57,949 nt of DNA. Origin: a virus. Under the pieces are notes generated by a model. It was given only the letters and a program-made list of their open reading frames with translations, was not told the origin of the DNA and did not search any database. Where the stretch lies: IMG/VR virus record IMGVR_UViG_3300045391_002368, positions 1 to 57,949 of that record; one strand, written 5' to 3'. Below, in pieces: positions 71-57,654 of this stretch (position 1 is the first letter of the stretch; every line of letters begins with the position of its first letter). Both the position numbers and the translations under genes were made by a program.

Positions 71-156
71 GGGAATTCCCGGCTGATAGCCTGATCCGTA
101 ACAGAGGCTCCGACGGCCTTCACGATAGCATAGTCGCTAGCTGCCCATCCGTTCAT
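1..156 (-). CDS. 5' part (52 codons) of a 124-aa small virion-module protein whose ORF crosses the circular junction and continues at 57879->57661.
   Basis: ATG at 154-156 overlaps the stop of the upstream gene (ATGA). It reads in frame MNGWAASDYAIVKAVGASVTDQAISREFPVTAGGAVQG into MMIKVKFSG..., the ORF listed at 57661..57921. Confidence 0.6.
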   Translation of the reverse strand, partial: MNGWAASDYAIVKAVGASVTDQAISREFPVTAGGAVQGMMIKVKFSGVTVST

Positions 157-551
157 TTGCTTACCAACCTTTCGTATAACTGATGAGGAGTAGTGCTGGA
201 GTTCTCGTTGTCGTCGAGATACTCAGTCACCCACTCGGTACATAGATACATTCCCGACATCTGCCAGAGATTAGCCTTCGGCAGCCAGGGGAAGAGGCAA
301 CGCAGCCCGAGATAGAACAGCGCACCCCAGTCGTAACCGAACCACCGAGACTGGCCGAGTAAGCGAAGAACCTTATCGGGATCAGAGGAAACAGGGACAG
401 CATGGACGATCTCGCTGTGGTCTAGAAAACTAGACCTATCCTCGACATGCGGTCCCCAGAGATTGCTGTGGATAACGATAGTCCCGTCCTCGATAGCGCA
501 GTGGGAACAGTCCTCTCCGGTGATCGCTCGGATCATCCTACTGAGGACCAT
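153..551 (-). CDS. Candidate permuted papain-like (NlpC/P60 superfamily, YiiX-like) cell-wall amidase/peptidase.
   Basis: Internal start MVLSRMIR chosen because the upstream gene stops at 578. The order SHCAI...IVIHS (His region) ...FGYDWG... then C-terminal MYLCTEWV (Cys) matches the permuted NlpC/P60 arrangement. Confidence 0.4.
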   Translation of the reverse strand: MVLSRMIRAITGEDCSHCAIEDGTIVIHSNLWGPHVEDRSSFLDHSEIVHAVPVSSDPDKVLRLLGQSRWFGYDWGALFYLGLRCLFPWLPKANLWQMSGMYLCTEWVTEYLDDNENSSTTPHQLYERLVSK

Positions 552-577
552 ATTATTTCTGGTGAAGAGGATCTGCA

Positions 578-997
578 CTAGGCGAGGACCTTGTGGAATA
601 GGACATTGAAATAGCAGGCAACGTTGAGAAGGCCAGTCGACGTGTAGATGCACCGCAGATAGAGTCCTGCTAGGATCTTGGCCGGATACGGAGCCTCCAT
701 ACCCCGCTGTGTCTGCGTGTCCGAGGCGACGTACCACGAGGAGGTGAACTGGTTGAGCACCGTTCCGGCTGGATAGTACAGCCCGTCCTTGTCTACTACC
801 TGGACTGTCATCGAATCACCGAGAACGTGGTTACTGAGGATCGCATAGGCCCCGAGAACGAGCCTGTCCTCGGGAAGCTGGTAATCGATATTCGTCGACG
901 TGCCTGCCGTAGCTGTGCCAGTAATGCCGGTACCCCGGAAGTTCAGGATATCGGAGGAGAGTTCGCTCAGTTTCTTCGGTGAGAACAGGGTTGTCAT
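578..997 (-). CDS. Virion-module protein of unknown function.
   Basis: ORF in the co-directional operon. Its start MTTLFSPKK overlaps the upstream stop (TAATG). Confidence 0.6.
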   Translation of the reverse strand: MTTLFSPKKLSELSSDILNFRGTGITGTATAGTSTNIDYQLPEDRLVLGAYAILSNHVLGDSMTVQVVDKDGLYYPAGTVLNQFTSSWYVASDTQTQRGMEAPYPAKILAGLYLRCIYTSTGLLNVACYFNVLFHKVLA

Positions 998-2575: not shown

Positions 2576-3565
2576 TTACGCCATCTGGAGGATATTAGCG
2601 TTCTGAGTACCCGAGGCTACCACACCGTAGACATCGACCGCCGGACCAACTTCCAGTTCCATGAACGACGCTTTCGGAACCTCGATGCCAGTCGTAGCGC
2701 CAGTGTTCGTGACCGTGGCACTACCAACCCAGATCGACGCACTACCAGCATTCTGAATCATCAGAGTCTTGCGGTTAGCGAGTGGGGTGGTCGGCAGCTT
2801 CGTGGCCGTGGTGGCGACAGCAATCTGTTGTTGGAGGATACTGCCGTTGGCAATATCGACCACCTTGAGAGAGCCTTCCGACCAGGTCAGAAGGGACGTA
2901 TAGTCGCCATCGGCGGCATTGCTACCCTGGGAATCCTTGCGGACACCGAGAGCCTGGATGCCCTGATCACCACTGGAGTGCGCTGCATCCTCAGCCTTCG
3001 AGAGCGCCGAGAGCGTCGACGAGATGGTGCTGGTGTTGCTAGCCGTGTTGCCCGTGTTGGTGACGATCGTGCTGAGGCTGGAGTTGGCAGTCGTCAGCTG
3101 AGAGTGAGTCGTCGTGTCGAAGACATAGAGCTCACCGAGGTTGTTGCTCTTGAAAGCGCCGTAGTCGCCGTCATTCGAGGTGGATTCGGCCAGCGTGTCC
3201 TGGCGGACGAGCAGCGTGAAGAGACCCGTGTCACCGTCGGTGTGGGGCGCATCTTCCGAGTAGTCGCCAGCGAAGTCGACCGTAGCCGAGACCGGCAGCT
3301 CACCGGAAGCATTGAGCGTGAACGGGACCCAGTTGCCATTGGTATCAATGGCACCCATGCTCATCAGATAGTCTACGCCAGCGGAATAGGCTGAGCCATC
3401 GAGATGAGATGAAATGTCGTTGCTATCGAGACGCTGGGTAGCACCGATAGTGGTCGACGTGAGGAGAGCTCCAGCTGCATCCGTTAGGTATGCTGCGATG
3501 GAGTGGCCGTCGGCCAGACTCGCCGTATTGACCTGGATGTTGTGGAGGCCGAGATTCATACCCAT
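2576..3565 (-). CDS. Structural protein. Its C-terminal ~75-aa beta domain is paralogous to the C-terminus of 3915..4547.
   Basis: 329-aa ORF with an AAGGAG RBS. C-terminus: NRKTLMIQNAGSASIWVGS...VDVYGVV. Confidence 0.6.
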   Translation of the reverse strand: MGMNLGLHNIQVNTASLADGHSIAAYLTDAAGALLTSTTIGATQRLDSNDISSHLDGSAYSAGVDYLMSMGAIDTNGNWVPFTLNASGELPVSATVDFAGDYSEDAPHTDGDTGLFTLLVRQDTLAESTSNDGDYGAFKSNNLGELYVFDTTTHSQLTTANSSLSTIVTNTGNTASNTSTISSTLSALSKAEDAAHSSGDQGIQALGVRKDSQGSNAADGDYTSLLTWSEGSLKVVDIANGSILQQQIAVATTATKLPTTPLANRKTLMIQNAGSASIWVGSATVTNTGATTGIEVPKASFMELEVGPAVDVYGVVASGTQNANILQMA

Positions 3566-3918: not shown

Positions 3919-4547
3919 CCACCAGCCTCCACTATCCTCACGTCGGCTCCCGGAACATCTGAGACACCGTAGACAGCAGCGCCTGCCGCAATATCGAGAG
4001 CGAGTGCATCCTTCGGAGCCAGGGGATATCCGACTGCAGAATCTGCCTTCGAGATATCCTCACCTATGAACAGATTAGCCGTAGCACTCCAGTTCTTTAC
4101 GAGAACACCCTGACGATCTGTGAGGGCTGCGGCAATGAGTACCACCGGGGTCGTACCTACGGTTTCCTGTGAGACTCGCCAGTTGGTGGAACCGAGGATA
4201 CGGGCAGACGCCTCTCCGGAACCTTCGATCGCACGGACGTAGACCTCGTAGGAACATCCGCCCGTGTAGGAGGCTACGACTCGGAATCGCTGGAGCGATA
4301 TGGCAGACTTTCGGAGAAGGAGCTGCGTAGTCGGTGCCGCTACCGCCGGGAACGAGATTACTCCAACCTCTTTCCCAGTATCCGTGAGGGTGTACACAGT
4401 AACCGTCAGGGATCCACTCGTAACTGAGTCTACCCATAGAGTAACTAGGAGTGAGTCCGACTGTATGGACCCCTCTCTGGACGTCGACCCAGCGCTCGCT
4501 GGGGACTCCGCTATCAGCCGTTCCTGGCTACCCGGGTGGATAAGCAT
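3915..4547 (-). CDS. Structural protein with the shared C-terminal beta domain.
   Basis: 210-aa ORF. Its C-terminus DRQGVLVKNWSATANLFIGE...AAVYGVSD aligns by eye to the C-terminus of 2576..3565. Confidence 0.6.
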   Translation of the reverse strand: MLIHPGSQERLIAESPASAGSTSREGSIQSDSLLVTLWVDSVTSGSLTVTVYTLTDTGKEVGVISFPAVAAPTTQLLLRKSAISLQRFRVVASYTGGCSYEVYVRAIEGSGEASARILGSTNWRVSQETVGTTPVVLIAAALTDRQGVLVKNWSATANLFIGEDISKADSAVGYPLAPKDALALDIAAGAAVYGVSDVPGADVRIVEAGG

Positions 4548-4608
4548 ACGGCTAGCATGGCATACTCTACGGGGAAATGCAACAGGTATTTATAGTCCTA
4601 GTACGGGC

Positions 4609-5133
4609 CTACTTCGCTACCGGTAGCTTCCGGATATTCTTCTGGATATATTCTTCGAGCTGCTCTTTCGACATCCCGGCAATCTTTTCGTCGGCATACT
4701 GGGCTTCCTTACCAGCGGCCTTCGGAAGCTTATTACCCAGTTCCATCACCAACTTGATGGCGGCTATCCTAGCGGTAGCCCCCGTATCCTTATCCCGGAG
4801 CACCTGCTCTAGATTGTCTAGCGCCAGGTTGGAGATGAACTCCACTCTCTGCCGGAATTCTTCCCTGTTGGTGAACCAGTCGACGAAGCCCGGTAGGCTC
4901 CACCAGTTCTCGATCCGCCTGTCCCCACAGAACCGCCTGGCTGCCGCCAGATCGATCGGCTCGGGCACAGGGGTCTCCCCATCCAGGAAGTGGCTCCAGA
5001 AGGTTGCCTTCGCCTTTCTGTGCTCTGCAGAGGGATCGCTGAAGAGGGTCAGGTCTCGGCCCACTGCCGCAATCTGGGCGAGGAGGTCTCCCCGCATCTT
5101 ATCTGCCACTGACATAGTATCCCCCAACCCCAT
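4609..5133 (-). CDS. Candidate terminase small subunit or DNA-binding protein. It is the first gene of the leftward late operon.
   Basis: 174-aa helical ORF with FWSHF...ENWWSLPGFVDWF...ARIAAIKLVMELG. The pattern resembles phage TerS proteins. The call is inferred from this pattern and its position at the operon head. Confidence 0.35.
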   Translation of the reverse strand: MGLGDTMSVADKMRGDLLAQIAAVGRDLTLFSDPSAEHRKAKATFWSHFLDGETPVPEPIDLAAARRFCGDRRIENWWSLPGFVDWFTNREEFRQRVEFISNLALDNLEQVLRDKDTGATARIAAIKLVMELGNKLPKAAGKEAQYADEKIAGMSKEQLEEYIQKNIRKLPVAK

Positions 5134-5164
5134 CTCGATACGTAAGACTAGTATCCTCTACTAG

Positions 5165-5208
5165 GCTGCTGTACCGGGTGAATAACTGACCCCTCTAGGT
5201 ACAGCAGC
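5165..5208. promoter_or_regulatory. Perfect 11-bp inverted repeat with a nested 4-bp stem, located 32 nt upstream of the late-operon ATG.
   Basis: gctgctgtacc (5165-5175) pairs with ggtacagcagc (5198-5208). A nested gggt/accc stem lies inside the loop. There is no U-tract on either strand. Confidence 0.5.
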
Positions 5209-5725
5209 ATACCTGGGGGTGTATGCATGCTCTACCCATTCCCCCCACTTCCGCTTCGGCACTCCACTTCGACTGCGTAACCTTCGTATTACTCGTGCGA
5301 CCCGTTGCTGCCGTGCCCCTACGAGCTCCTGGAGGAGCTACTATCGGGACGCCCCACTCGACTCTTCCCTGAGTCGCTCACCTCGGATGCCTGTAGCCCA
5401 TTTCTGGGCATCATCACCTCCGGTCGGGGGTAGTTGCCGGGTGATTCAACCTGGCAGCGGATAGAGAAACATCTAACAGATCCTTGGGTTTCGACACGTA
5501 ACTCAGTGTTACTATGTTCCGAACTGCCAGGTCTATCCGACGGCCCGCTGGGTCATCCTCTCGGTTCGGTGGGTGGACTGACACGTGGGCAGTCTACTCT
5601 CACTGGGCGAACACTGGGACTCTACAGACGTTTCTGATCGGGGCGCCGAACTACGTCACAATCCGGACAGCAGGACAGTGCCTGCCTACTTCGAGGCTAG
5701 CATACTCCGTACTGGGATGCAAGCA

Positions 5726-6274
5726 TTATTTCTGAGTGATGGGGGTTCCGTTAGCCGGGATGACCAGTAGGCCTAATGAGGATAGCATCTTACTCCACCG
5801 GAGGACACATTCCTCTGCCGTCATTCCTAGCATGGTGCGCCGGCAGTCGAGGCAGATAGGCATACAGTTTCGGGATGTGTAGGCCTCATCGGGACGTATT
5901 CTCTGGACCCCGAGCCCCTTCGTCTCCGGACAGAAGGTACAGGTCCCGGCTGTTAGTGCCCTGAATTCCTTGTCCCCTAGGTCGAATGCCTGCCCCTCGA
6001 TGACTGCCCTTCTAATTTCCCTAGCCATGCGCCTTCGGAGCTGGTAGCGTGGACCCGGCTTCGGGGTCTTCCTCCGGGAGATAAGGTTCCGATGTAGCTC
6101 GCAGGTTCCGCACGTCTTCACCCGCCCGTGGCGCACGTCCCTGACCAGGTACTCTCTCACGTTCCCGCAATCGCACCTTCCGAGCCACCTAGATCCGACA
6201 CCCTTCGCCGACGGCCTGGAGTACCGTAGCAGAGTGATGTGATTGTACTTCTTTCCTGTCTCGTCCTTGCGCAT
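5726..6274 (-). CDS. Free-standing HNH/His-Me-finger-like homing-endonuclease-type protein with Zn-ribbon Cys clusters.
   Basis: N-terminal RWLGRCDCGNVREYL...VKTCGTC and C-terminal CTFCPETKGLGVQRIRPDEAYTSRNCMPICLDCRR both match a pattern common in phage HNH-like proteins. Confidence 0.55.
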   Translation of the reverse strand: MRKDETGKKYNHITLLRYSRPSAKGVGSRWLGRCDCGNVREYLVRDVRHGRVKTCGTCELHRNLISRRKTPKPGPRYQLRRRMAREIRRAVIEGQAFDLGDKEFRALTAGTCTFCPETKGLGVQRIRPDEAYTSRNCMPICLDCRRTMLGMTAEECVLRWSKMLSSLGLLVIPANGTPITQK

Positions 6275-6400
6275 TCCTGTGACTCCGTGTGTAATAGTAA
6301 AGTTATTTTACCAGATGCCGAGTGTATGCATAGGCTATTTTCTATTTCTGGTAGCCGTGTGTGGGGGTTGCAATCACCTCGGTTGGGCGGTACGTCAGGC

Positions 6401-6490
6401 CACACTTGCCCCCTTAGCACACGACTGGGGGCTGTGTGCCCAACCTACGGAAGGGGGAAATCAACTGCCGGAACAACAAGTTCCCCGTAG
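6401..6490. other. Two adjacent strong stem-loops in non-coding DNA.
   Basis: First: cacac-tt-gccccc / gggggc-t-gtgtg (6401-6438). Second: ctacgg...ccgtag enclosing ggaac-aacaa-gttcc (6445-6490). Confidence 0.45.
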
Positions 6491-6523
6491 TAGTGGGAGA
6501 CGGTGCATATTGCATGGTTAGCT

Positions 6524-6596
6524 AGGTACGCTTGTGACTCAGCGTAGGGTAGGGTATCATCTCGGTACGGTATGGGTACCAGGGTAGGTACGGTGG
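6524..6596. repeat. GGTA-rich repeat cluster (GGTACG, GGGTAGGGTA, GGTACGGTATGGGTACCAGGGTAGGTACGGTGG).
   Basis: Read directly from the sequence. A second short run, GGTAGGTAGGTAGG, lies at 6817-6830. Confidence 0.6.
6532..6560 (+). promoter_or_regulatory. Sigma70-like promoter candidate, TTGTGA-17 nt-TATCAT, upstream of the small plus-strand ORF.
   Basis: Hexamers at 6532-6537 and 6555-6560 with 17-nt spacing. The host sigma specificity is unknown. Confidence 0.25.
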
Positions 6597-6617
6597 TCAT
6601 TCTTCTGGGAGGAAGCC

Positions 6618-6818
6618 ATGTCTAGACGTACGGTGCTTCGGAAGGTGGAGAGTACGCCGGTTGCTATCGAGCCTCGGGGAGATCGGGGGAAGAGGAGACG
6701 GATCCAGAGACGAGTAGCTCTCGTACTCGACTGCTTCGCCATGGGGGTATCGCTCGCTATCCTCTATCTGCTTATCCGAGGAGCCTGCGTGTTCTTCCCG
6801 GATGCATGCTACTGGTAG
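6618..6818 (+). CDS. Small (66 aa) basic protein with one C-terminal transmembrane helix, encoded opposite to the surrounding leftward genes.
   Basis: Strong SD gGGAGGAAgccATG. Sequence: MSRRTVLRK...RRRIQRRVALVLDCFAMGVSLAILYLLIRGACVFF. Confidence 0.35.
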   Translation: MSRRTVLRKVESTPVAIEPRGDRGKRRRIQRRVALVLDCFAMGVSLAILYLLIRGACVFFPDACYW

Positions 6819-6956
6819 GTAGGTAGGAAAGGCCCCGGACCGCATCTCTGCAGCCCGGGGTCCCCGTCAGTGACTCTAGTTTCCGTCGCTCGGAGACTAG
6901 ATATTCCTCTCTCGGCATCTCACTCCATTTTCTTTAGTAGTAGCATTCCTCTCACA

Positions 6957-7064
6957 CCACAAGTAATCGCCGGACTTCTCCCCGAAGTCCCGACGGTCTA
7001 CTATGCAGTCGCCGGACTCCGCATCGGAGTCCCGATGGTCTCCTACGACCTCCACAAGTAATCG
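6957..7064. repeat. A 13-bp direct repeat (ccacaagtaatcg at 6957-6969 and 7052-7064) brackets two tandem ~43-nt units, each forming a hairpin.
   Basis: Hairpin 1 is ggacttc-tcccc-gaagtcc (6972-6990). Hairpin 2 is ggactccg-cat-cggagtcc (7014-7032). The flanks tcgccGGACT...AGTCCcga(c/t)ggtct are shared between units. Confidence 0.8.
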
Positions 7065-7228
7065 TAGAGCAGCTGCACGAGTCTCACCGATGCTTCCTGC
7101 GCATACGGGAGGATCACCGTATGTCCGCAGAGACCATGGAATACCAGCTGGCAGTGCCCCCGGTACTTCCCTTCCTGCAGCCAGCGTATCGAGACAGTGC
7201 TCCGGTCGGATAGCTGTACCGTATGCAT
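7043..7228 (-). CDS. Small hypothetical protein (61 aa).
   Basis: GGAGG RBS 9 nt upstream of the ATG. The ORF ends inside the right copy of the 13-bp repeat. Confidence 0.45.
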   Translation of the reverse strand: MHTVQLSDRSTVSIRWLQEGKYRGHCQLVFHGLCGHTVILPYAQEASVRLVQLLYDYLWRS

Positions 7229-7287
7229 GTGGCGAGACCTCCTACCAGATGCTATCGCTCCGGGAGGTCCCGCCTCGACTGTCCTAC

Positions 7288-7545
7288 TCAGTTCCTCGAT
7301 TCTCCTCCGGTATTCGGGGAAGAATACTGCGCTCGCAGAAAGCGTACATACGGATCCGAGCCTGCATAGTTAGTTCTACTCATCGCTCGTAGTAGGTCGT
7401 CGAGTGGCACATCGTACCTCTCCGCTATACGCCTGGCCTCTCCCGAGTAACAGAGAGTAGGGTCGTCGGTGATACGCTTCCAGGCCTCGAATAATTGAGC
7501 TACTGCTTCTCTAACAGGATCAGACACTTCGAGTTCCTCCCTCAT
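7288..7545 (-). CDS. Small helical protein, possibly an HTH regulator. It is the first leftward gene at the divergent region.
   Basis: 85-aa ORF. The segment SGEARRIAERYDVPLDDLLRAM looks HTH-like. No obvious SD. Confidence 0.4.
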   Translation of the reverse strand: MREELEVSDPVREAVAQLFEAWKRITDDPTLCYSGEARRIAERYDVPLDDLLRAMSRTNYAGSDPYVRFLRAQYSSPNTGGESRN

Positions 7546-7608
7546 GTTTACCGACTAGTGAGCGAAGATAGTTCTAGTGTCTGGTGCACACTGGAGGCAA
7601 GTACGAAA

Positions 7609-8325
7609 ATGAGCAACTTCCTCTCTCAGCTATACAACCCGCAGCTCTACCGAGAGTTCGAGGCCCTGGCCGATAGGCTCTGCGGGCCTCATGTGTTCCC
7701 TGCTCGCTGCGATGTTCTCTCTTTCCTCGATCTAGGCCGGGATCCATCCGTAGTCATCCTCGGCCAGGATCCCTATCACACGCCGGGGAAGGCGAACGGC
7801 CGGGCCTTCGGCTACCATCCCGATTACCGGGGACCAATCGACGCCTCGATGCGTAACATCATCCAGGAGGTTGCAGCCAGCGGCTACCCCGAGGTGCTCG
7901 AACACGACGAGAAGAGAGGTGTAGTTCCGAGTCCCTACTGGGACCTCACGCTTCGGAGCTGGACTCTCCAAGGCGTATTGCTCCTCAATAGCGCACTCAC
8001 TGTGCGGGAAGGTGCCCCTCTCTCGCATGCATACCAGGGATGGCAGTCTCTAGTCCAGAGACTCCTAGCTCTAGTGGCTCGACAGTACGATCCCGTATTC
8101 CTCCTCTGGGGCCGGTCTGCTCAGTCGCTCTTCGACATCACGTTCCTCGATCACGGGGACAGGCCGCACCCCGTCTCAATCCGTACCTCACATCCATCTC
8201 CCTTCTCTGCTAGCAAGGGCAGCAGTCCGTTCCTCGGTAGTAAGTGTTTCCGGGATGCCAACGAGGTCCTGGCATCGATGCAGCGTCCGACCATCAACTG
8301 GGGGATATCCACTAATGTCCGCTAA
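7609..8325 (+). CDS. ung: Uracil-DNA glycosylase, family 1.
   Basis: Contains VVILGQDPYHTPGKANGRAFG (the GQDPYH motif) and SHPSPFSAS (the HPSPLS-type leucine loop). GGAGG RBS upstream of the ATG at 7609. Confidence 0.85.
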   Translation: MSNFLSQLYNPQLYREFEALADRLCGPHVFPARCDVLSFLDLGRDPSVVILGQDPYHTPGKANGRAFGYHPDYRGPIDASMRNIIQEVAASGYPEVLEHDEKRGVVPSPYWDLTLRSWTLQGVLLLNSALTVREGAPLSHAYQGWQSLVQRLLALVARQYDPVFLLWGRSAQSLFDITFLDHGDRPHPVSIRTSHPSPFSASKGSSPFLGSKCFRDANEVLASMQRPTINWGISTNVR

Positions 8326-12216: not shown

Positions 12217-14496
12217 ATGTCAGATGATTCTCTCGTTACAACTGAGGCAGGTAAGCCCGAGTGGAAGCGGGTGCTCATACCGGGACGACATACGCCGGCT
12301 CGCACCGGAAGGTATTTCCAGCGTCATGCAAACTACCAGGATCTCCAGCATATCCTACCGGCAGTAGCCCGATCGGAATTCGTCGCCGTCGACTTCGAGA
12401 CCAGGGGCGGTGACTATTCCGAGGGTCTCTCCATCGTCGGTCTGGGCCTGGCCTGGGACAGCGGCTCGTGCTACCTCGATTGGGGTAGTCTCTATGCCGG
12501 ATCCCAGAGTCAGGTCCGGACTGCCCTCCTCTCCCACAAGGGACTGCTGGCGCACAATGTCTACTTCGACGGCGGGGTGATGCGCACCTGCTGGGGTCAG
12601 CACGGGCAGTGGGCAGCCTGCACCTTCTCCCTATACAAGATGCTGGCCAACGAGGGCTGGCCCGGACAGCGTCACGGTCTCAAGGAAGCGATGGTCGATG
12701 TACTCCAGTGGGAGAACGCCAATGAGGACGAGCTCGAATACTGGCTCATCACGAATGGGTGGTACCGGGGCACTCGTCTCAAGGATGCATCCCCAGCGAA
12801 GTTAGACCTACTAGCACGGGAGAAGAAACTGTCTGCTGACAAGGGCCAGCTGTGGAGAGCCCCTGCACAGATACTCGGGCAGTACTGCGTACTCGACGCC
12901 GAGGCCTGCTACCTACTCTACACAGAGCACCTAATGCCTGTACTTGCAGAGCGGTTTACAGATACCGGATTTTCCAAGTGGTTTACAGAATCCTGGATGC
13001 ACTCGATCCGGGTGCACATAGACCAGAAGATCCATGGTATCTGTGTCGACCGCATCGGTCTTCTCGACAGGCAGCAGCATCTCGGGGATCAGATCGAGGA
13101 TCTCTCCGTAGAAATACGGACCCACGAGGAGGTGGCTCCGCACATCGCCACTATCGAGACGGAGCTTCTCTCCGAACTCCTGGCCAAGGAACCCGAGCAG
13201 TACCTCAGGCAGAAGCCTGTCCCACCGGAGCCTCCTCGCTACCGGAAGAATGGATCTATCTCGAAGGTCTGGCAGCGCTGGCAGGAGAACCTCTCGAAGT
13301 ACCAGACGAGAACCCTCTCGAAGAACTGGGAGAACTGGCACGGGCGCCTCCTCCGGGCACGTGAGGGGAAAGACCCTGCGTACCGAATGAACTTCCAGTC
13401 TGACCACCATCTGCGTCGTCTCTTCTACGAGCTGATGGGTAAGCCGGTGCGCACCTACACGGATGCCGGGCTGCCGGGTACTGGCGTGAAGGCGCTCAAG
13501 AATCTCGGACCGGTGGGCCAGCTCCTGATAGAGAGGTCCTGGGCAGAGAAGGAACTCGGCTATATCACAGACTATATCGAGAGAAGTGAGGCACGGGGAA
13601 CTATCCACCCCTCCTTCCGTATGCCCGGAACTAAGACTGGACGGCTCTCCTCTTCGGGCCCGAACATGCAGCAGATCCCGAAGTCGATGGCAGTGATGAG
13701 TCTCTTCGTTGCGAGACCTGGGCGGCTGTTCGTCGATCTCGACTTCTCCGCACTCGAACCAGTGGTGGCTACCGAGTTCTCCGGAGACGAGAACATGCGT
13801 CGCATCTATGCAGATGGAGCTCCCCCCAATGACATCTACCTCTATGTGGCGGCTCACATTCCGGGGATGGCGGAAGAGATCCGTGCGACTGGCTATGATC
13901 CGAAAGCACCAACAGCTGAGACTCTGGCGAAGGCGAAGAAGGAATGCAAGAAGACGAGGTCGATAGCGAAGACCGTCGTCCTCGCCTGTCAGTACGGCGC
14001 CGGAGTGAAGAAGATACTAGAGACACTAGAGACAGACAACGTGTTCCTTCCCGAGGAGGAGGTAGCGAAGATCCACTCCGGGTACTGGAAACTATTCAGT
14101 GGAGTACGGGAGTTCCGGTTCGACCTAGAGAGACAGTGGAAGCGCAATGGGGGCTACCTACTCAATGGTCTGGGTAGGCCCATGTGTGTCACCGAGGACT
14201 ACAAGCACGACTGTCTCAACCGCTTCATCCAGTCGACTGGACACGACATTCTGGTGGAGTACATTCGAATCCTCACGAACAATCTCGATGCTGCAGGCCT
14301 AGACTGGGATCCTCTCGTCATCGACTGGCACGATGCTGCAGCTGTCGAGGTTGCAGAGGATCAGCTGGAGAGAACAGTGGAAGTGTACAAGGACTCGCTC
14401 GACGATCTCAATAGGCATCTGGGTGGGAGCATAACGCTCAAGGGCACGCCGTCCTGGGGTAGGACAATGGCCTCGATAAAAGAGCCAGAGGAGTAA
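12217..14496 (+). CDS. Family A (T7/Pol I-like) DNA polymerase with a 3'-5' exonuclease domain.
   Basis: VAVDFETRG (Exo I), KTGRLSSSGPNMQQIP, RSIAKTVVLACQYGAG (motif B) and VIDWHDAAAVEV (motif C). Confidence 0.9.
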   Translation: MSDDSLVTTEAGKPEWKRVLIPGRHTPARTGRYFQRHANYQDLQHILPAVARSEFVAVDFETRGGDYSEGLSIVGLGLAWDSGSCYLDWGSLYAGSQSQVRTALLSHKGLLAHNVYFDGGVMRTCWGQHGQWAACTFSLYKMLANEGWPGQRHGLKEAMVDVLQWENANEDELEYWLITNGWYRGTRLKDASPAKLDLLAREKKLSADKGQLWRAPAQILGQYCVLDAEACYLLYTEHLMPVLAERFTDTGFSKWFTESWMHSIRVHIDQKIHGICVDRIGLLDRQQHLGDQIEDLSVEIRTHEEVAPHIATIETELLSELLAKEPEQYLRQKPVPPEPPRYRKNGSISKVWQRWQENLSKYQTRTLSKNWENWHGRLLRAREGKDPAYRMNFQSDHHLRRLFYELMGKPVRTYTDAGLPGTGVKALKNLGPVGQLLIERSWAEKELGYITDYIERSEARGTIHPSFRMPGTKTGRLSSSGPNMQQIPKSMAVMSLFVARPGRLFVDLDFSALEPVVATEFSGDENMRRIYADGAPPNDIYLYVAAHIPGMAEEIRATGYDPKAPTAETLAKAKKECKKTRSIAKTVVLACQYGAGVKKILETLETDNVFLPEEEVAKIHSGYWKLFSGVREFRFDLERQWKRNGGYLLNGLGRPMCVTEDYKHDCLNRFIQSTGHDILVEYIRILTNNLDAAGLDWDPLVIDWHDAAAVEVAEDQLERTVEVYKDSLDDLNRHLGGSITLKGTPSWGRTMASIKEPEE

Positions 14497-15005
14497 TGTT
14501 CGTGGGAACTCGAAGGAGAAAGCTAGAGATAGAGACTACTGGATTTCCGGGAATGAGTAAGCACCCATTGTATCTTGTATGGTATAATATGCTCCGACGC
14601 TGCTATGATAAACAGAATAGCTACTATAGGGGGTACGGGGGTAGGGGTATTCGGGTCTGTCCGCAGTGGTTTGATTTCGGTACCTTTCTCCGGGATATGG
14701 GCGAGAAGCCTGGTCCGGATTACGAGCTGGACCGAAAGGATAACAATGGAAACTACGAACCGGAAAACGTCAGATGGGCAACTCCCTCACAGAATCGGAG
14801 AAATAGACGTCCCTACGGGAAATCGAAGTATAGGGGAGTATGCTACTTAGGGAAGTACATATACGCTAGACTATACTTATCAACTGAATGTAAATTTCTA
14901 GGCTATTTTCCAACAGAGGAGGAAGCAGCCCTCGCTTTCAATAAGGCAGCCATCGAATACTTCGGTGAGGATTGTGGTATGCTGAACGAGGTACCCGAGA
15001 AATGA
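14496..15005 (+). CDS. HNH homing endonuclease with an AP2-type DNA-binding domain.
   Basis: DRKDNNGNYEPENVRWATPSQNRRN and YRGV...EEEAALAFNKAAIEYFGE. The GC content is visibly lower than in the flanking polymerase gene. Confidence 0.8.
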   Translation: MFVGTRRRKLEIETTGFPGMSKHPLYLVWYNMLRRCYDKQNSYYRGYGGRGIRVCPQWFDFGTFLRDMGEKPGPDYELDRKDNNGNYEPENVRWATPSQNRRNRRPYGKSKYRGVCYLGKYIYARLYLSTECKFLGYFPTEEEAALAFNKAAIEYFGEDCGMLNEVPEK

Positions 15006-53753: not shown

Positions 53754-55784
53754 TCACGCTACTACTCCTGGTGCTGGCGGGATACCCGTATCGGGGGCTC
53801 CGGGGGTGACTGGGCCTGCTTCTGGCTGGGGAACAGGAGCTGCCTGGGCAGTTCCGGCCTTCTCCGAGGCTGCCAGCTGCGCTCTCTCCTCGATATGGCG
53901 CTCGCACAAGGCCTGCATCTCGTCAGGCAGGGACTCGAATTCCTGAGTCATGAAGTAGCGCATAGCGAAGGCGATCATATTCTCGTGGTCACGGTACTTC
54001 TTCGGCGGAATGTAGAGGCCTGTAGCCACCATGGCATCGAAGATCTCCTTCTGACGGGTGTCCGCCAGGTCGAGCTCGTCGTACATCCCCTCCAGCTCAT
54101 TGAGCTTCATGAGCTTCATGGAGGTACGGGCAGGAACCCCCGCCTTCTCGAACATCGGCTGGAGGGTAATGATCTCCTGCCGGCGTGTCATCGGGTCGAG
54201 AGAGAGGGAAACGCCATACTCGCCTACCACATCATAACCCCCATCAATATCCGTACCCCGAATATCGATAGCCTCCAGCGCTTTCTCCTTACCGATGACG
54301 TGGATGGTTCGGGTAGTCGTCCAATGCTTCCGAACGAGGTTGAGAATGCCCCGATATATAGATTCCACCACAAGTACATACTTATTGAAGAGCCTCCGGC
54401 GGATCATGTTTCCCTGGTTGGTAGCGAACTGCATCGCTGCCATGGCCTGTTCCCGGCTCTGCTGTCCGAACATGGACTCATTCACACCAGAAACATCATT
54501 GATCCCATTGACGTGGTTGGTACGCAGCGCTGTCATGTCTGGCATGAGCTGCGGGGGTTGCATGAAGTAGGGCGGCTGATTGCCGCTGATCTTCGTAACA
54601 TCCCACGGAGAGTTGGATAGTCCGTCGTCAGCGATGTCCGCACTCTCTGGAATGACCAGTCTCGCAACTCCGTGTGCCTGGACGTTATCCATCGTCGCAG
54701 AGTCGAGCCTATTGAGGTTTTCCTGGAGCTGCGCAGCATACTCCACGAAGGAACGGCCCCAGACCATGTTCGGAACATCGATATCTGTAAGAATATGATA
54801 GGGAAGTTGCGCTCTCTCCGGGAGGCGCTCGATCATCCGCTCCTTCACCTCATCGGGAAGGTCCATTGCCTCGATGCGAGCGATGGCTCCGGCACCACGG
54901 AAGCGGAAGGGAGAGGGCCTACAGGGCTCGACCACGTCACCGTCGACCGTGGTGATGCAGTAGCGGCCTAGATATCCGTTAGTGGGAAGGCCAGTTTCCC
55001 AGTACTCCAGGAGTTCGACGCAATTGTAGTGATCATCCTGGAGCTGCGTAGCCCGGCCACGGGTAGCAGGCGTGGTCTTTCTCTCGATACGGGCCTTCTT
55101 CAGTAGATCCTGCTTGGTAGGCCAGCGCAGACACGCTTCCTCGTAGTCGATGTAGACCCGCTCGATTATCTTGCGGACGGTATCCGCACTCTTCGCATCC
55201 GGGTCGAGATAGAGATTCCAGATGAAGGGGGTCTCTACAGCGATGTCGCCTTCGAGAATGACCTCACCGGTCTTCTCCTCGTGGCGGATGATGTCGCCCT
55301 TACCTGCATCCCAGATCGTCTTGATAACGCCAGTACCGTAGAGGAGAGTCATCAGTGAGAGCTGATCGATCTTCTCTTGCATATTATAGTGACGGATGGA
55401 ATAGCGAACAATCTTGTCTGCAGCCTCAGCCTTCCTGTGGTCTTCCTGGTCGGAAGTAGTCGGCCGCATCACCACAGACGGGGGGTTACTGCTCATCTGT
55501 GCGTGGATGAAGCGGAAATTCTTGAACGTGTAGGCAATGTTCACGTCGGCATTCGAGCCGTCGATTCCGGGAAGGCCGATATTGAAGTTGGACTCCAGAG
55601 AGGTCTGGAGATAGCTCATGTTCTGTGTGGAATTAGTGGAATAGACCGACTTTTCGTTGCGGATCCACTTTTCTTCCTGGTATATCCGGGCCTCTTCCGC
55701 ATAGCGGAACATCTCCGAGACCTTCTTCTTCGTCTCAGCGTCCGACCAGGCATGTGCTCTGATACCGGTTTCCATCTCGCTCAC
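53754..55784 (-). CDS. Portal protein.
   Basis: 676-aa ORF, separated from terL only by two small ORFs (56069..56209 and 55781..56065). Size and position are typical for a portal. Confidence 0.7.
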   Translation of the reverse strand: MSEMETGIRAHAWSDAETKKKVSEMFRYAEEARIYQEEKWIRNEKSVYSTNSTQNMSYLQTSLESNFNIGLPGIDGSNADVNIAYTFKNFRFIHAQMSSNPPSVVMRPTTSDQEDHRKAEAADKIVRYSIRHYNMQEKIDQLSLMTLLYGTGVIKTIWDAGKGDIIRHEEKTGEVILEGDIAVETPFIWNLYLDPDAKSADTVRKIIERVYIDYEEACLRWPTKQDLLKKARIERKTTPATRGRATQLQDDHYNCVELLEYWETGLPTNGYLGRYCITTVDGDVVEPCRPSPFRFRGAGAIARIEAMDLPDEVKERMIERLPERAQLPYHILTDIDVPNMVWGRSFVEYAAQLQENLNRLDSATMDNVQAHGVARLVIPESADIADDGLSNSPWDVTKISGNQPPYFMQPPQLMPDMTALRTNHVNGINDVSGVNESMFGQQSREQAMAAMQFATNQGNMIRRRLFNKYVLVVESIYRGILNLVRKHWTTTRTIHVIGKEKALEAIDIRGTDIDGGYDVVGEYGVSLSLDPMTRRQEIITLQPMFEKAGVPARTSMKLMKLNELEGMYDELDLADTRQKEIFDAMVATGLYIPPKKYRDHENMIAFAMRYFMTQEFESLPDEMQALCERHIEERAQLAASEKAGTAQAAPVPQPEAGPVTPGAPDTGIPPAPGVVA

Positions 55785-56068: not shown

Positions 56069-56209
56069 TTATGGTCTCCTTCTTCCCAGACGCCATTGCT
56101 CCAGAAGAATACGACGGTTACGTAGACGTTCCTGACGGATACCCATGTAGAGTATCCCATTGATAGGAATGAGAATTGTCAGTAGATAGAGAATAGCAGC
56201 AGCAATCAC
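56069..56209 (-). CDS. 46-aa membrane peptide between terL and the portal-proximal genes.
   Basis: The GTG overlaps the terL stop (GTGA). Sequence: VIAAAILYLLTILIPINGILYMGIRQERLRNRR... Confidence 0.3.
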   Translation of the reverse strand: MIAAAILYLLTILIPINGILYMGIRQERLRNRRILLEQWRLGRRRP

Positions 56210-57654
56210 GAGACGTGCCTCTTCCGTTGGATACGTATGCGCCTCTTCTCGGACTTCGAGCGGGCCTTCTCGACAGACTGCTTGCGTTCCTCGTTGGCCT
56301 TCCACAGCCAGTCCTGCCAGGAGCTGGCCTGGATTCGCTTCTCTGCCTTCGGGATATTGTCGCAGAAATACTGGGCAGAATCGAGGAGATGGTATGAACT
56401 AGCGTTGACTATCTTTCCCTCTGCCTGATTACTCCAGCGGCACTCCTGGAATTCCTCGATGAGCTGCTCGCAGTGGGGGGCAACGAATACCTGCTTACCC
56501 ATCTTCTCCTGGAGCTGCTTGATCAGCTCTGCCTTGCGCTCGCTCTTCCGATGTACCCCTATATAGGAGAGGCCCATGGATGCTGCGGTCTGGATGTACC
56601 AGACCTCGTGGGGATCCGAGATACGGCGTACGATATTGTAGCGGGAGGTCTTCTCCCGGATTGCTTGCACGAGTTCTGTCGGAACGTAGATGCCCCGTAC
56701 CTTCTCTGCATGGATGCAGTACCATTGCCCGCTGGCGGGGTCCTCTGCCCAGACAGTCAGACCGAGGGCCGATTTGAGAGCTGGGTCTACAGCTTCGACG
56801 TGCCTCCACAGGGGAGAGTAGTTGTCGGGCATGCGCACCATCTGCGCATAGTGGAAGTAGTAGACCTGGTCATCCGAGGACATCCACTCGCCCTCGAAGA
56901 TCGCCTTCTGCACATGATCCGGAAGCTGCGAATATCGGGCTAGGAGTTCTGCCTTACGCTGTGCATCGCCGTAGAGCGGGTTGTCTAGCATGTGGAAACG
57001 GTAGACCTTACCCTCGGGTTCCGAGAGGGAGTCTACGTATCTCTGGATCTCCGCACTCACGACAGTCGGAGTGAAGGAGGCTAGGAAGTAGCCATTGCGG
57101 GCCTGTACCCGAACGAGAAGTTCTCGGACTAGCTCGATGGTCGGTGGCAGCTCGTCGATCCACACGAGGTGGGCCACGTACGACATGAGCCTCTCACGGG
57201 CTATGTTCGGGTTTTCCAGAGACTGGAAGACTACCCGATTCCCGTTGGTTAGCTCTAGCCGCTGTATGATATTCCCGATCCGGACCTCCTTGTAGGTCCC
57301 AGGCTCTAGGAAGGAGCGGATCTTCGGGAGGAGCGAGTCCTCGATCTGCTTACCGGTACGGCCTGCCACGATGATCAGGAGGGGCTCTTCTCCCCAGGTT
57401 TCCGGACGTCCCCAGACAGGATGTGTATCGGTCAGTACCCAGGTGACGATGCGAGCACAGGTCTGGCTCTTTCCCGACTGGTTACCGGCCCTAATCCACT
57501 GCTGCTTGATGTTCGAGAAATCGTCGAAGACTTCCTGCTGCTTCGCTGTGGGCTTCGACTCTAGATTGGAAGGGTCGAAGGCCTCTCGCCGTCGGAGGAT
57601 ATCGAGACGGCGGAGGGCAGCAGCTACTAGCTTCTGACTGTCTGACGACGACAT
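56206..57654 (-). CDS. terL: Terminase large subunit.
   Basis: RAGNQSGKSQ (Walker A-like) and HLVWIDELP (Walker B). 482 aa. Confidence 0.85.
   Translation of the reverse strand: MSSSDSQKLVAAALRRLDILRRREAFDPSNLESKPTAKQQEVFDDFSNIKQQWIRAGNQSGKSQTCARIVTWVLTDTHPVWGRPETWGEEPLLIIVAGRTGKQIEDSLLPKIRSFLEPGTYKEVRIGNIIQRLELTNGNRVVFQSLENPNIARERLMSYVAHLVWIDELPPTIELVRELLVRVQARNGYFLASFTPTVVSAEIQRYVDSLSEPEGKVYRFHMLDNPLYGDAQRKAELLARYSQLPDHVQKAIFEGEWMSSDDQVYYFHYAQMVRMPDNYSPLWRHVEAVDPALKSALGLTVWAEDPASGQWYCIHAEKVRGIYVPTELVQAIREKTSRYNIVRRISDPHEVWYIQTAASMGLSYIGVHRKSERKAELIKQLQEKMGKQVFVAPHCEQLIEEFQECRWSNQAEGKIVNASSYHLLDSAQYFCDNIPKAEKRIQASSWQDWLWKANEERKQSVEKARSKSEKRRIRIQRKRHVS

Follow-up and report, generated by a model that had tools for sequence, protein, structure and literature searches.

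A putative pseudoknotted leader RNA at the head of the late operon of an HMO-2011-type phage and its relatives

A gene-poor block at the head of the late operon

What occupies a 1.9-kb block of a phage genome in which a single HNH-like gene is flanked by two tracts without evident genes? This question is raised by positions 5134 to 7042 of IMG/VR record IMGVR_UViG_3300045391_002368, whose whole stretch of 57,949 nucleotides is referred to here as the window. The window is a complete, circularly assembled phage genome of ~57.9 kb with identical first and last 70 bases, an overlap that is an artifact of assembly. The phage is an HMO-2011-type podophage; it resembles Puniceispirillum phage HMO-2011 in gene order and has a 413-aa structural protein with 33% identity to gp65 of that phage. 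All virion and packaging genes lie on the minus strand, from 7545 down to 1 and then from 57654 to 27779, and the block lies within the first 2.4 kb of this ~37-kb late operon. A preliminary description, made by eye, had offered a large noncoding RNA, a decayed intron-like shell around a free-standing endonuclease gene, or a packaging (pac), replication origin (ori), or regulatory region as explanations. We found that the two tracts differ, 5134-5725 being conserved and 6275-7042 unconserved. The conserved tract is predicted to encode a previously undescribed structured RNA, ~400 nt long in the window, in the sense of the late genes. Features lie on the minus strand unless stated otherwise.

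Alignment with homologues places the start codon of p174 (4609-5115), the first gene after the conserved tract, at the ATG at 5115, so that the true spacer is 5116-5725. The tract 5134-5725 holds only short open reading frames (ORFs) of at most 56 aa on the minus strand and 81 aa on the plus strand, all with negative codon-usage scores, while confident genes score 0.15 to 0.54. The lack of a convincing ORF, which had been claimed for both tracts, therefore holds for this one. Tract 6275-7042 is less clearly empty: the ORFs at 6618-6818 (plus), 6557-6742 (minus), 6897-7055 (minus), and 6870-7061 (plus) score 0.07 to 0.13, similar to the accepted neighboring genes (the HNH-like gene, p61, and p85; 0.04 to 0.06). 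The ~600-nt spacer should stay free of hypothetical ORFs in annotation. Reassignment of a stop codon was rejected as the cause of the ORF gaps: stop types are mixed in every minus frame, and long ORFs in the standard code occur elsewhere.

The stems that had been pointed out in the block do exist, among them an 11-bp inverted repeat (5208-5198 with 5175-5165), tandem hairpins (6972-6990 and 7014-7032), and the complement CCTGGCAG/CTGCCAGG. The label hairpin-dense did not hold: the minimum free energy was only 1.3 to 1.5 standard deviations below that of dinucleotide shuffles, and 13 of 100, 3 of 20, and 1 of 20 shuffles folded as well. Neither tract folded significantly better than dinucleotide shuffles on either strand tested (z of -1.3 to -1.5), and global folding energy is uninformative here. 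The support for an RNA is comparative evidence and not the hairpins; the preliminary description was partly right, and its interest in the block is justified, but the evidence it cited is not what matters.

Relatives, designated here by L numbers, were recruited from IMG/VR, JGI, and Logan assemblies via the p174 protein, which is 31 to 59% identical among them; the p174 family comprises 58 clusters at 90% identity. A metagenome scan with a p174 profile yielded at least one locus, and look-ups in IMG/VR and of exact proteins were more productive. The order HNH-like gene, 460 to 920 nt without a conserved ORF, p174, and p210 was found in 13 lineages (L005, L006, L007, L008/L009, L010, L011/L012/L014, L015, L018, L019, L022, L026, L033, and L035). 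A spacer of this kind and length is present in 15 of the 15 element-carrying lineages that have DNA upstream of p174; the contigs of L003 and L004 start within the spacer. Alignment with related genomes, which had been proposed as a check, thus showed that the block 5134-5725 is conserved and covarying, with no intact protein gene in it.

The composition of the locus varies in ways that are informative. L038 and L039 keep the spacer and the RNA and have no HNH-like gene; an uncalled winged-helix-like ORF precedes p174. L034 and L001 lack the HNH-like gene and leave no room for the spacer and the RNA, and L036 has no HNH-like gene and just 365 nt of contig upstream. A gene of 89 to 113 aa abuts p174 in L034 (1672-1941), L036 (366-647), and L001 (1179-1520). 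The L034 protein of this type gives a subthreshold MarR/winged-helix match (E = 7e-5), and the uncalled ORF of the same winged-helix-like type in L038 (~3250-3500) lies alongside the RNA. This small protein is possibly an alternative to the RNA or a partner of it. p174 itself is intact and of the same length in relatives with and without the block.

Fold and conservation of the RNA

Alignments of the spacers revealed a conserved core of ~250 nt whose helices number at least 11 and include a 9-bp pseudoknot. A covariation scan of the plain alignment picked out the pseudoknot as a 9-bp long-range helix whose 3′ strand lies inside a hairpin loop. RNAalifold together with inspection yielded hairpins b and H, helix a, which closes the 5′ domain, helices k, d0, and d in a closing stack, and an arm e that carries the sub-hairpins f and g. 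The pseudoknot helix (X) pairs AAACGUCUG with UAGAUGUUU in the window, UAUUAUCUG with UAGAUAAUA in L006, AAUCACUG with UAGUGAUU in L007, CAUUGUCUG with UAGACAAUG in L010, AAGUUACUG with UAGUAACUU in L018, AUAACAAUAUA with UAUAUUGUUAU in L033, and GAAUUACU with AGUAAUUC in L038, the two strands being ~110 to 160 nt apart.

The pairing was quantified in two alignments of only 9 to 12 related sequences, and significance was taken from shuffles and slid controls. In a structure-blind MAFFT alignment of nine sequences (A5), 91.2% of 513 cells were canonical, compared to 77.3% in column shuffles and 30 to 43% with slid partners. Both sides had changed in 31 of 59 pairs, and 0 of 500 shuffles reached the score. 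An alignment of 12 sequences (A6), fitted to a covariance model (R1) that was built without the window sequence, gave 91.4% canonical cells against 69.9% in shuffles, with changes on both sides in 44 of the 59 pairs; again, the score was reached by 0 of 500 shuffles. The pseudoknot paired in 98 to 100% of the cells, with four to five covarying positions; since R1 did not include the pseudoknot, this pairing is an independent check. G·U cells numbered 57 compared to 21 A·C cells, a bias that points to the gene-sense (minus) strand as the folding strand. The core does not behave as coding sequence. Stops occur in essentially all frames, there is no 3-nt periodicity of conservation (0.749/0.744/0.723), and core lengths differ among relatives by non-multiples of 3. 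Highly conserved unpaired stretches include CUGUUGA, GAGACAG, GAAAC, and UGUUAG.

Searches of known RNA families returned no counterpart. Rfam 15, with its models of group I and II introns, riboswitches, tmRNA, and RNase P among others, gave no match over the whole window at gathering thresholds; at E ≤ 10, region 4400-7700 gave only a chance match to Xist_exon1 (16.6 bits against a gathering threshold of 50), and nine relatives (62.7 kb) gave none at E ≤ 1. ARAGORN found no tRNA or tmRNA in the window. The Infernal search that had been suggested for the window thus leaves no known family, and a large RNA encoded here would be new. A strict three-anchor DNA pattern, which is narrow, retrieved from IMG/VR only the four p174-linked phages already known and three chance matches that failed the model, and there is accordingly no sign of the RNA in other contexts within the reach of this pattern. 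We are confident that the RNA family is real and, judging from the comparisons with Rfam, consider it new. The idea of a large phage-borne noncoding RNA is thereby borne out for 5134-5725, by conservation, covariation, and the pseudoknot; it does not extend to 6275-7042, where conservation is lacking.

In the window, the RNA core spans 5286-5666 and, at 381 nt, is longer than that of most relatives (~250 nt). The window has every one of the helices a, X, H, d, d0, e, and k of the family, in order, and their complementarity was confirmed. Placed by hand, they are helix a (5666-5659 with 5526-5519), pseudoknot X (5633-5625 with 5475-5467), closing helix k (5501-5498 with 5292-5289), helix d0 (5497-5492 with 5299-5294), helix d (5489-5486 with 5303-5300), hairpin H (5483-5480 with 5462-5459), and helix e (5458-5453 with 5312-5307), the last of which encloses a lineage-specific insertion of ~140 nt. 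The window copy therefore has the arrangement that defines the family: helix a encloses the 5′ strand of X, the 3′ strand of X lies in the loop of H, d and k follow, and p174 lies downstream. Within a subgroup of window-like copies (window, L003, L033, and L038), the hand alignment covered helices a, X, H, d, and e only; L035 was not convincingly alignable to the RNA. The enlarged e arm of ~140 to 190 nt is common to the window and L003. Model R1 matched L005 (58 bits) and L018 (42 bits) strongly and L003 weakly. On the window it matched 5553-5275 (11.8 bits, E = 0.0016 in 3.1 kb) with the 5′ domain misplaced, and a sequence-only profile of 12 relatives found its best match in the whole 58-kb window at 5513-5455 (E = 0.011 to 0.023).

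Among the stems cited earlier as signs of an RNA, the long-range complement cctggcag/ctgccagg is a real 8-bp complement, which we term helix m; it joins the 5′ strand of e with the segment just before the 3′ strand of a. It reads CCUGGCAG/CUGCCAGG in the window and is compensated in L003 as CCGGGCAG/CUGCCCGG, the only relative with which it covaries; L007, L019, L022, L005, and L018 do not have it. The perfect 11-bp repeat mentioned above lies outside the conserved core, so the stems held up in part. Helix m is in competition with helix e, to which it may be an alternative. A local alternative also exists for the 5′ strand of k, as GUAAC/GUUAC in the window, GUUGC/GCAAC in L010, and UGUUGC/GUAACA in L008.

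Position of the RNA and its candidate function

A candidate promoter for the RNA lies at 5722-5694 and consists of the -35 element TTGCAT (5722-5717), a spacer of 17 nt, and an extended -10 element TGC-TAGCCT (5699-5694), which ends 27 nt before helix a and predicts a start site near 5687. In relatives, the promoters sit between the HNH-like stop codon and helix a. Near-consensus sigma-70 promoters with 10 to 11 of 12 matches end 29 to 36 nt before helix a in L026 (TTGACA-17-TAGAAT), L008 (TTGACA-17-TATGAT), L010 (TTGACA-17-TACCAT), L007 (TTGACA-18-TACAAT), and L011 (TTGACA-17-TACAGT). L005 has TTGACT-17-TATATT. The promoter of L038 (TTGACA-17-TATGAT) ends 63 nt before helix a; in this genome, promoter and RNA directly follow the divergent early genes, with no HNH-like gene between them. 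Because the promoters lie just upstream of the first helix, the RNA would be the 5′ leader of the ~37-kb late operon, and because the promoter lies between them, the HNH-like gene is transcriptionally separable from the RNA. Of the pac/ori/regulatory explanation, the regulatory part is thus upheld by a promoter and then a leader RNA that head the late operon, and a DNA-level pac site is unsupported for the core.

The promoter of the window resembles a second promoter-like motif at 4582-4553, between p174 and p210 (TTGCAT, 12 nt, GAGTATGC, and then TAGCC). The full motif, AAATA..TTGCAT-N12-GAGTATGC..TAGCC, occurs in two copies that precede the leader RNA (5722-5694) and p210 (4582-4553), and TTGCAT N9-15 TATGC has just these two matches in the window. 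They may be phage late promoters of a nonconsensus type suited to a GC-rich host. Further along the late operon, between genes 2576-3565 and 997-2238, a terminator-like hairpin (~2522-2570) has a GC-rich stem of 16 bp with ~-25 kcal/mol that is followed by UUUCUACU (UUUCU); it is a candidate internal terminator for late transcription to read through.

The fold is in the sense strand, is conserved, and has a fixed place behind the promoter that heads the late operon. On balance, we therefore favor, though by no means firmly, the reading that 5134-5725 is the 5′ leader of the late transcript, folding into a large conserved pseudoknotted domain with a function in cis, most likely on late-gene expression. 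Host RNA polymerase would start at the sigma-70-type promoter between the HNH-like stop codon and the first helix (5722-5694). As covariation shows, the long-range helix a closes the 5′ domain, and the strand of X inside this domain pairs with the loop of hairpin H of the 3′ domain to form the pseudoknot. The 3′ domain is closed by the stack of k, d0, and d and carries the variable arm of e, f, and g. The leader would most likely act in cis on its own transcript or on the polymerase, and elongation might be made terminator-resistant over the late operon.

Antitermination of this kind, by analogy with put and conAn2, is a tentative proposal for how terminator-resistant elongation over ~37 kb could be achieved. 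It is consistent with apparent reliance on the host polymerase (no RNA polymerase gene was recognized among the large ORFs of the window), the length of the operon, the internal terminator-like hairpin, and the replacement of the RNA by a small protein of DNA-binding type. By position, the RNA follows a promoter in relatives and plausibly does so in the window, and a permissive scan placed one strong terminator-like hairpin inside the operon at ~2522-2570. Somewhat more speculative is the idea that a large RNA, alone or with a small protein, replaces a protein regulator as a processive antiterminator or late-gene switch throughout a widespread group of environmental HMO-2011-type podophages and represents a new class of element acting on the host transcription machinery. 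The winged-helix protein is the candidate protein counterpart in relatives without the RNA.

Known systems offer partial parallels. In the conAn system of pLS20, a 37-kb operon opens with a small protein gene and then an RNA of ~315 nt, which antiterminates in cis (PMC8191782). Like conAn2, the RNA described here is large, comes just after a small protein gene, and lies near the start of a unidirectional operon of ~37 kb. conAn2 acts only in cis, in pLS20 and further conjugative plasmids found in Gram-positive bacteria, and is likened here by description and not by sequence or structure; the HNH-like protein is not related to ConAn1, and its gene, as L038 shows, is dispensable in these phages; the host range is different. 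The putL and putR sites of HK022 mediate RNA-only processive antitermination in a lambdoid phage (PMC9378689). They resemble the present case in that a nascent phage RNA just after a promoter heads a long operon and that relatives without it use a protein. A put site measures ~70 nt and consists of two stem-loops without a pseudoknot, whereas the RNA here has 250 to 400 nt, at least 11 helices, and a pseudoknot, and shows no similarity to put. EAR likewise acts in cis as a structured RNA, within a long operon or before it, but it is much smaller and belongs to Bacillales. GOLLD, ROOL, and the phi29 pRNA are large, highly structured phage RNAs, the last of which is tied to packaging; they are free-standing genes, often near tRNAs, and not operon leaders. 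No Rfam family matched the window or the nine relatives, which covers these RNAs and, if Rfam has a model for it, EAR.

Several observations weigh against this reading. The proposal of antitermination is based on position and analogy. The scan for terminators was permissive, and most of its matches are probably noise. put and EAR are much smaller than this RNA and have no similarity to it, and conAn joins gene and RNA in a single transcript, whereas a promoter intervenes between the HNH-like gene and the RNA here. Not every relative has the RNA: L034 and L001 are without it and have the winged-helix-like gene instead, so that it is not essential for this type of phage. In the window, the promoter matches only 6 of 12 consensus positions, and the RNA is a divergent member with low covariance-model and profile scores, an insertion of 140 nt, and a 5′ domain that the covariance model misaligns. 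The sequences behind the covariation are few and related, A6 was fitted to the structure, and support is weak for helices f, g, and m and for the local alternative in which the 5′ strand of k can pair.

Large tertiary-structured RNAs of bacteria and phages beyond the classic ribozymes and riboswitches are rare, and OLE, GOLLD, ROOL, HEARO, and raiA opened new biology. Should the leader prove to control elongation, it would bring the number of known RNA-based antitermination systems to just four and be the largest of them in a phage, and it would explain how late genes are switched on in HMO-2011-type phages without an RNA polymerase, which are abundant in aquatic and soil viromes; if its role is in a ribonucleoprotein (RNP), in packaging, or in sensing, it would be a new functional class of RNA. 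As it stands, the RNA family is new and its kind, the structured leader of a phage operon, broadly familiar, with a fair chance that it is a new mechanistic class. Follow-up is favored by the logic of promoter, RNA, and 37-kb operon, by natural variants with and without the RNA and the HNH-like gene, and by strong covariation that includes the pseudoknot. A literature search found no paper linking HMO-2011 with a noncoding RNA.

Between the core and p174, the tail of the leader (5116-5285) is variable. It contains a purine-rich GGGGGG motif, the perfect 11-bp hairpin, which is not conserved in L003, and CTAG/GTAC-rich repeats, and it ends at the start of p174. The tails of relatives align poorly; AAAGGGG-like motifs and GTAC-containing inverted repeats are common to them. 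The distance from the core to p174 varies from 135 to 305 nt, with neither a terminator nor conserved pairing of the ribosome-binding site. The tail could provide protein-binding sites at the level of RNA or DNA. In the window, it carries arrays of GTAC-based direct and inverted repeats (CUGUAC, GGUACC, CCGGUAC, and GUAGC/GCUAC). Similar GTAC arrays are found in the tails of L008, L010, L011, L015, L019, L022, and L026; they cannot be aligned between clades and are alike in kind. These repeats may be sites for a regulator or for recognition by a small terminase at pac.

Could the leader instead be a sensor, a riboswitch or protein-responsive switch that binds a metabolite or a protein of phage or host through its core and tunes p174 and the late genes through alternative pairings? 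The complex fold and its highly conserved unpaired stretches would suit such a role, as would the helices that could be mutually exclusive (local against distal pairing of the 5′ strand of k, and capture of the 5′ strand of e by helix m). We nevertheless regard a sensor as unlikely, since no expression platform is apparent and no intrinsic terminator follows the core, the variable spacer of 135 to 305 nt separates it from the p174 ribosome-binding site, helix m is missing from the relatives named above, and no known riboswitch model matches.

An equally low probability attaches to a stable RNA that is processed from the leader and acts in trans, as an RNP with the HNH-like protein, p174, or both, in packaging or assembly, much like the phi29 pRNA or a nuclease cofactor. 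The RNA is flanked by the HNH-like gene and p174 where the packaging and virion module begins, and its size and tertiary complexity exceed what a simple leader needs. In HK97-type packaging modules, an HNH gene, then a site (cos), and then the small terminase is the classic order, with the large terminase coming right after. p174 heads the run of late genes p210, p111, p329, and onward. Its protein has no sequence matches in Pfam, PHROG, or PDB; its AlphaFold model is all-helical (pLDDT of 80), and four small terminases are among the top matches of a Foldseek search against PDB, none of which is significant (E ≥ 0.9). The gene for the large terminase, TerL (56206-57654), is not adjacent to p174 but lies another ~5 kb down the operon. 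L038 and L039 possess the RNA and no HNH-like gene, the Rfam models of pRNA, HEARO, GOLLD, and ROOL are unmatched, and processing or stability of the RNA is unsupported.

A DNA-level site (pac, cos, or an origin), with duplex or extruded DNA as the active form and conservation reflecting protein-binding sequence, is improbable for the tract. Its neighbors are the HNH-like gene and a possible small terminase, and the GTAC/CTAG inverted-repeat arrays in the tails of many relatives are possible binding sites. In the core, by contrast, the sequence changes while pairing is kept, including in the long-range pseudoknot over 110 to 160 nt, and only one strand folds well, as seen from the excess of G·U over A·C (57:21). 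The 70-bp terminal overlap holds no information on genome ends. Only in the variable tail beside p174, with its many GTAC repeats, is a packaging site in the DNA plausible.

The HNH-like gene (5726-6274), the upstream neighbor of promoter and RNA, encodes a zinc-finger protein of 182 aa. It weakly matches PHROG 374 (HNH endonuclease) at E = 2e-9, over no more than the N-terminal 65 residues, and PHROG 1035 (endonuclease VII) at E = 2e-7; neither Pfam nor any RuvC family gave a match. Homologues of 27 to 37% identity occupy the same position in L005 to L011, L015, L018, L019, L022, L026, L033, and L035, the protein having 164 to 216 aa across the family. By eye, the HNH motif looks degenerate in the window copy (GVQRIRPDEAYTSRNCMPICLDCRR) compared to that of L006 (GIDRIDSSLGYVSGNVVPCCGTCNKMK). 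Its synteny in most relatives shows that the gene is no sporadic insertion, and the label free-standing does not apply; it is a frequent, conserved but dispensable neighbor of the RNA. In L010, the sequence at 1633-2043, upstream of the promoter and the RNA, translates to an HNH-type C-terminal motif (NGIDRVNSDIGY..CVPCCSTCNMMK) beyond the point where the called HNH-like ORF of 209 aa stops. In this relative, the gene seems to be frameshifted or partly duplicated, which accounts for the 921-nt gap of this relative.

We reject the explanation of a mobile HNH element or an intron, of group I or another type, in the form of a decayed shell whose halves would be the two ORF-poor tracts around the HNH-like ORF: no intron model matches in the window or nine relatives, the tract upstream of the gene is unconserved and only ~280 nt long in L006, so that the two flanks behave differently, L038 and L039 have the RNA without the gene, a promoter separates the two, no host gene is split at the flanks (p61 and p174 are complete and unrelated), and the relatives without both (L034 and L001) have an intact p174 and a different small gene at the site instead of a clean empty site. 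A group I intron with an HNH homing endonuclease would likewise place an HNH-type ORF beside structured noncoding phage sequence, and it would have the conserved P3-P8 core and split a gene whose exons splicing restores, but here there are no exons, only one flank is conserved, and RNA and ORF are independent. HEARO, the omega-RNA of IscB, similarly is a large structured RNA adjoining an ORF with HNH similarity; its model is unmatched, and here the RNA lies downstream of the gene behind a promoter of its own, in a locus that is syntenic and not mobile. IscB-type proteins combine RuvC and HNH domains in ~400 to 500 aa, compared to 164 to 216 aa and a seemingly degenerate HNH motif here, and the obligatory linkage of RNA and protein in that system contrasts with the RNA without the gene in L038 and L039.

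The second tract and other features of the genome

The tract 6275-7042 showed no blastn or tblastx similarity to the matching regions of L005, L006, L007, L018, L033, L035, and L038, and its other copies are identical assemblies of the same phage only. Its folding z-scores are -1.5 and -1.4, and R1 gives no meaningful match. Among relatives, the interval upstream of the HNH-like gene measures between ~280 nt (L006) and 712 nt (L033). There is no reason to count this tract as part of the RNA; it is probably a separate, lineage-specific region with promoters and one or more small genes. Most likely it comprises a cassette for a 66-aa protein, a promoter of the HNH-like gene, for which an AT-rich promoter-like stretch lies just upstream of that gene (~6300-6340), and a recent local duplication.

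The cassette (6532-6865) is on the plus strand, antisense to the late operon, and consists of a promoter-like sequence at 6532-6560 (TTGTGA-17-TATCAT), a ribosome-binding site (GGAGGA), the ORF 6618-6818, and a GC-rich hairpin at ~6831-6865. The encoded protein has a basic N terminus and one predicted membrane helix. Gene callers annotated the ORF in a second assembly of this phage (P0060), and no homologues outside the phage were found. At the other end of the tract, two tandem 42-nt hairpin units (6967-7045) are bracketed by a 13-nt exact direct repeat, CCACAAGTAATCG, at 6957 and 7052. The units form hairpins of 7 to 8 bp whose stems differ by compensatory changes (GGACTTC...GAAGTCC compared to GGACTCC...GGAGTCC). 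Deletion of 95 nt would fuse ORF 7043-7228 in frame with 6897-7055 via the repeated DYLW codons, which suggests that a recent duplication or insertion truncated a small gene near 6957-7064.

At the DNA level, no similarity to GenBank phages was found for the window. The replication genes (7609-27786, plus strand) encode a UDG-family protein, a DNA polymerase, a ribonucleotide reductase, and a helicase. The portal gene (53754-55784) lies downstream of TerL in the late operon, together with several "virion structural proteins." A bona fide HNH endonuclease of 169 aa (14496-15005, plus strand; PHROG 374, E = 3e-47, plus seven other HNH families) begins on the final base of the DNA polymerase gene (12217-14496). 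It resembles a free-standing homing endonuclease, and its HNH match is far better than that of the HNH-like gene at 5726-6274. In the late operon, ORF 153-737 (minus strand) has a PHROG match of the enoyl-CoA hydratase/carnitine racemase-like type (E = 8e-12), and its product could be a scaffold protease of the ClpP/crotonase fold or that of an auxiliary gene. Stop-like trinucleotides are skewed in the window, TAA being strongly depleted (194 on the plus strand and 339 on the minus strand) and TAG abundant (916 and 737, respectively). CTAG is normally avoided in bacteria and phages; by eye, both CTAG and GTAC appear frequent in the window. This skew in CTAG, GTAC, and stop trinucleotides may reflect restriction-modification by the host or modification of the DNA.

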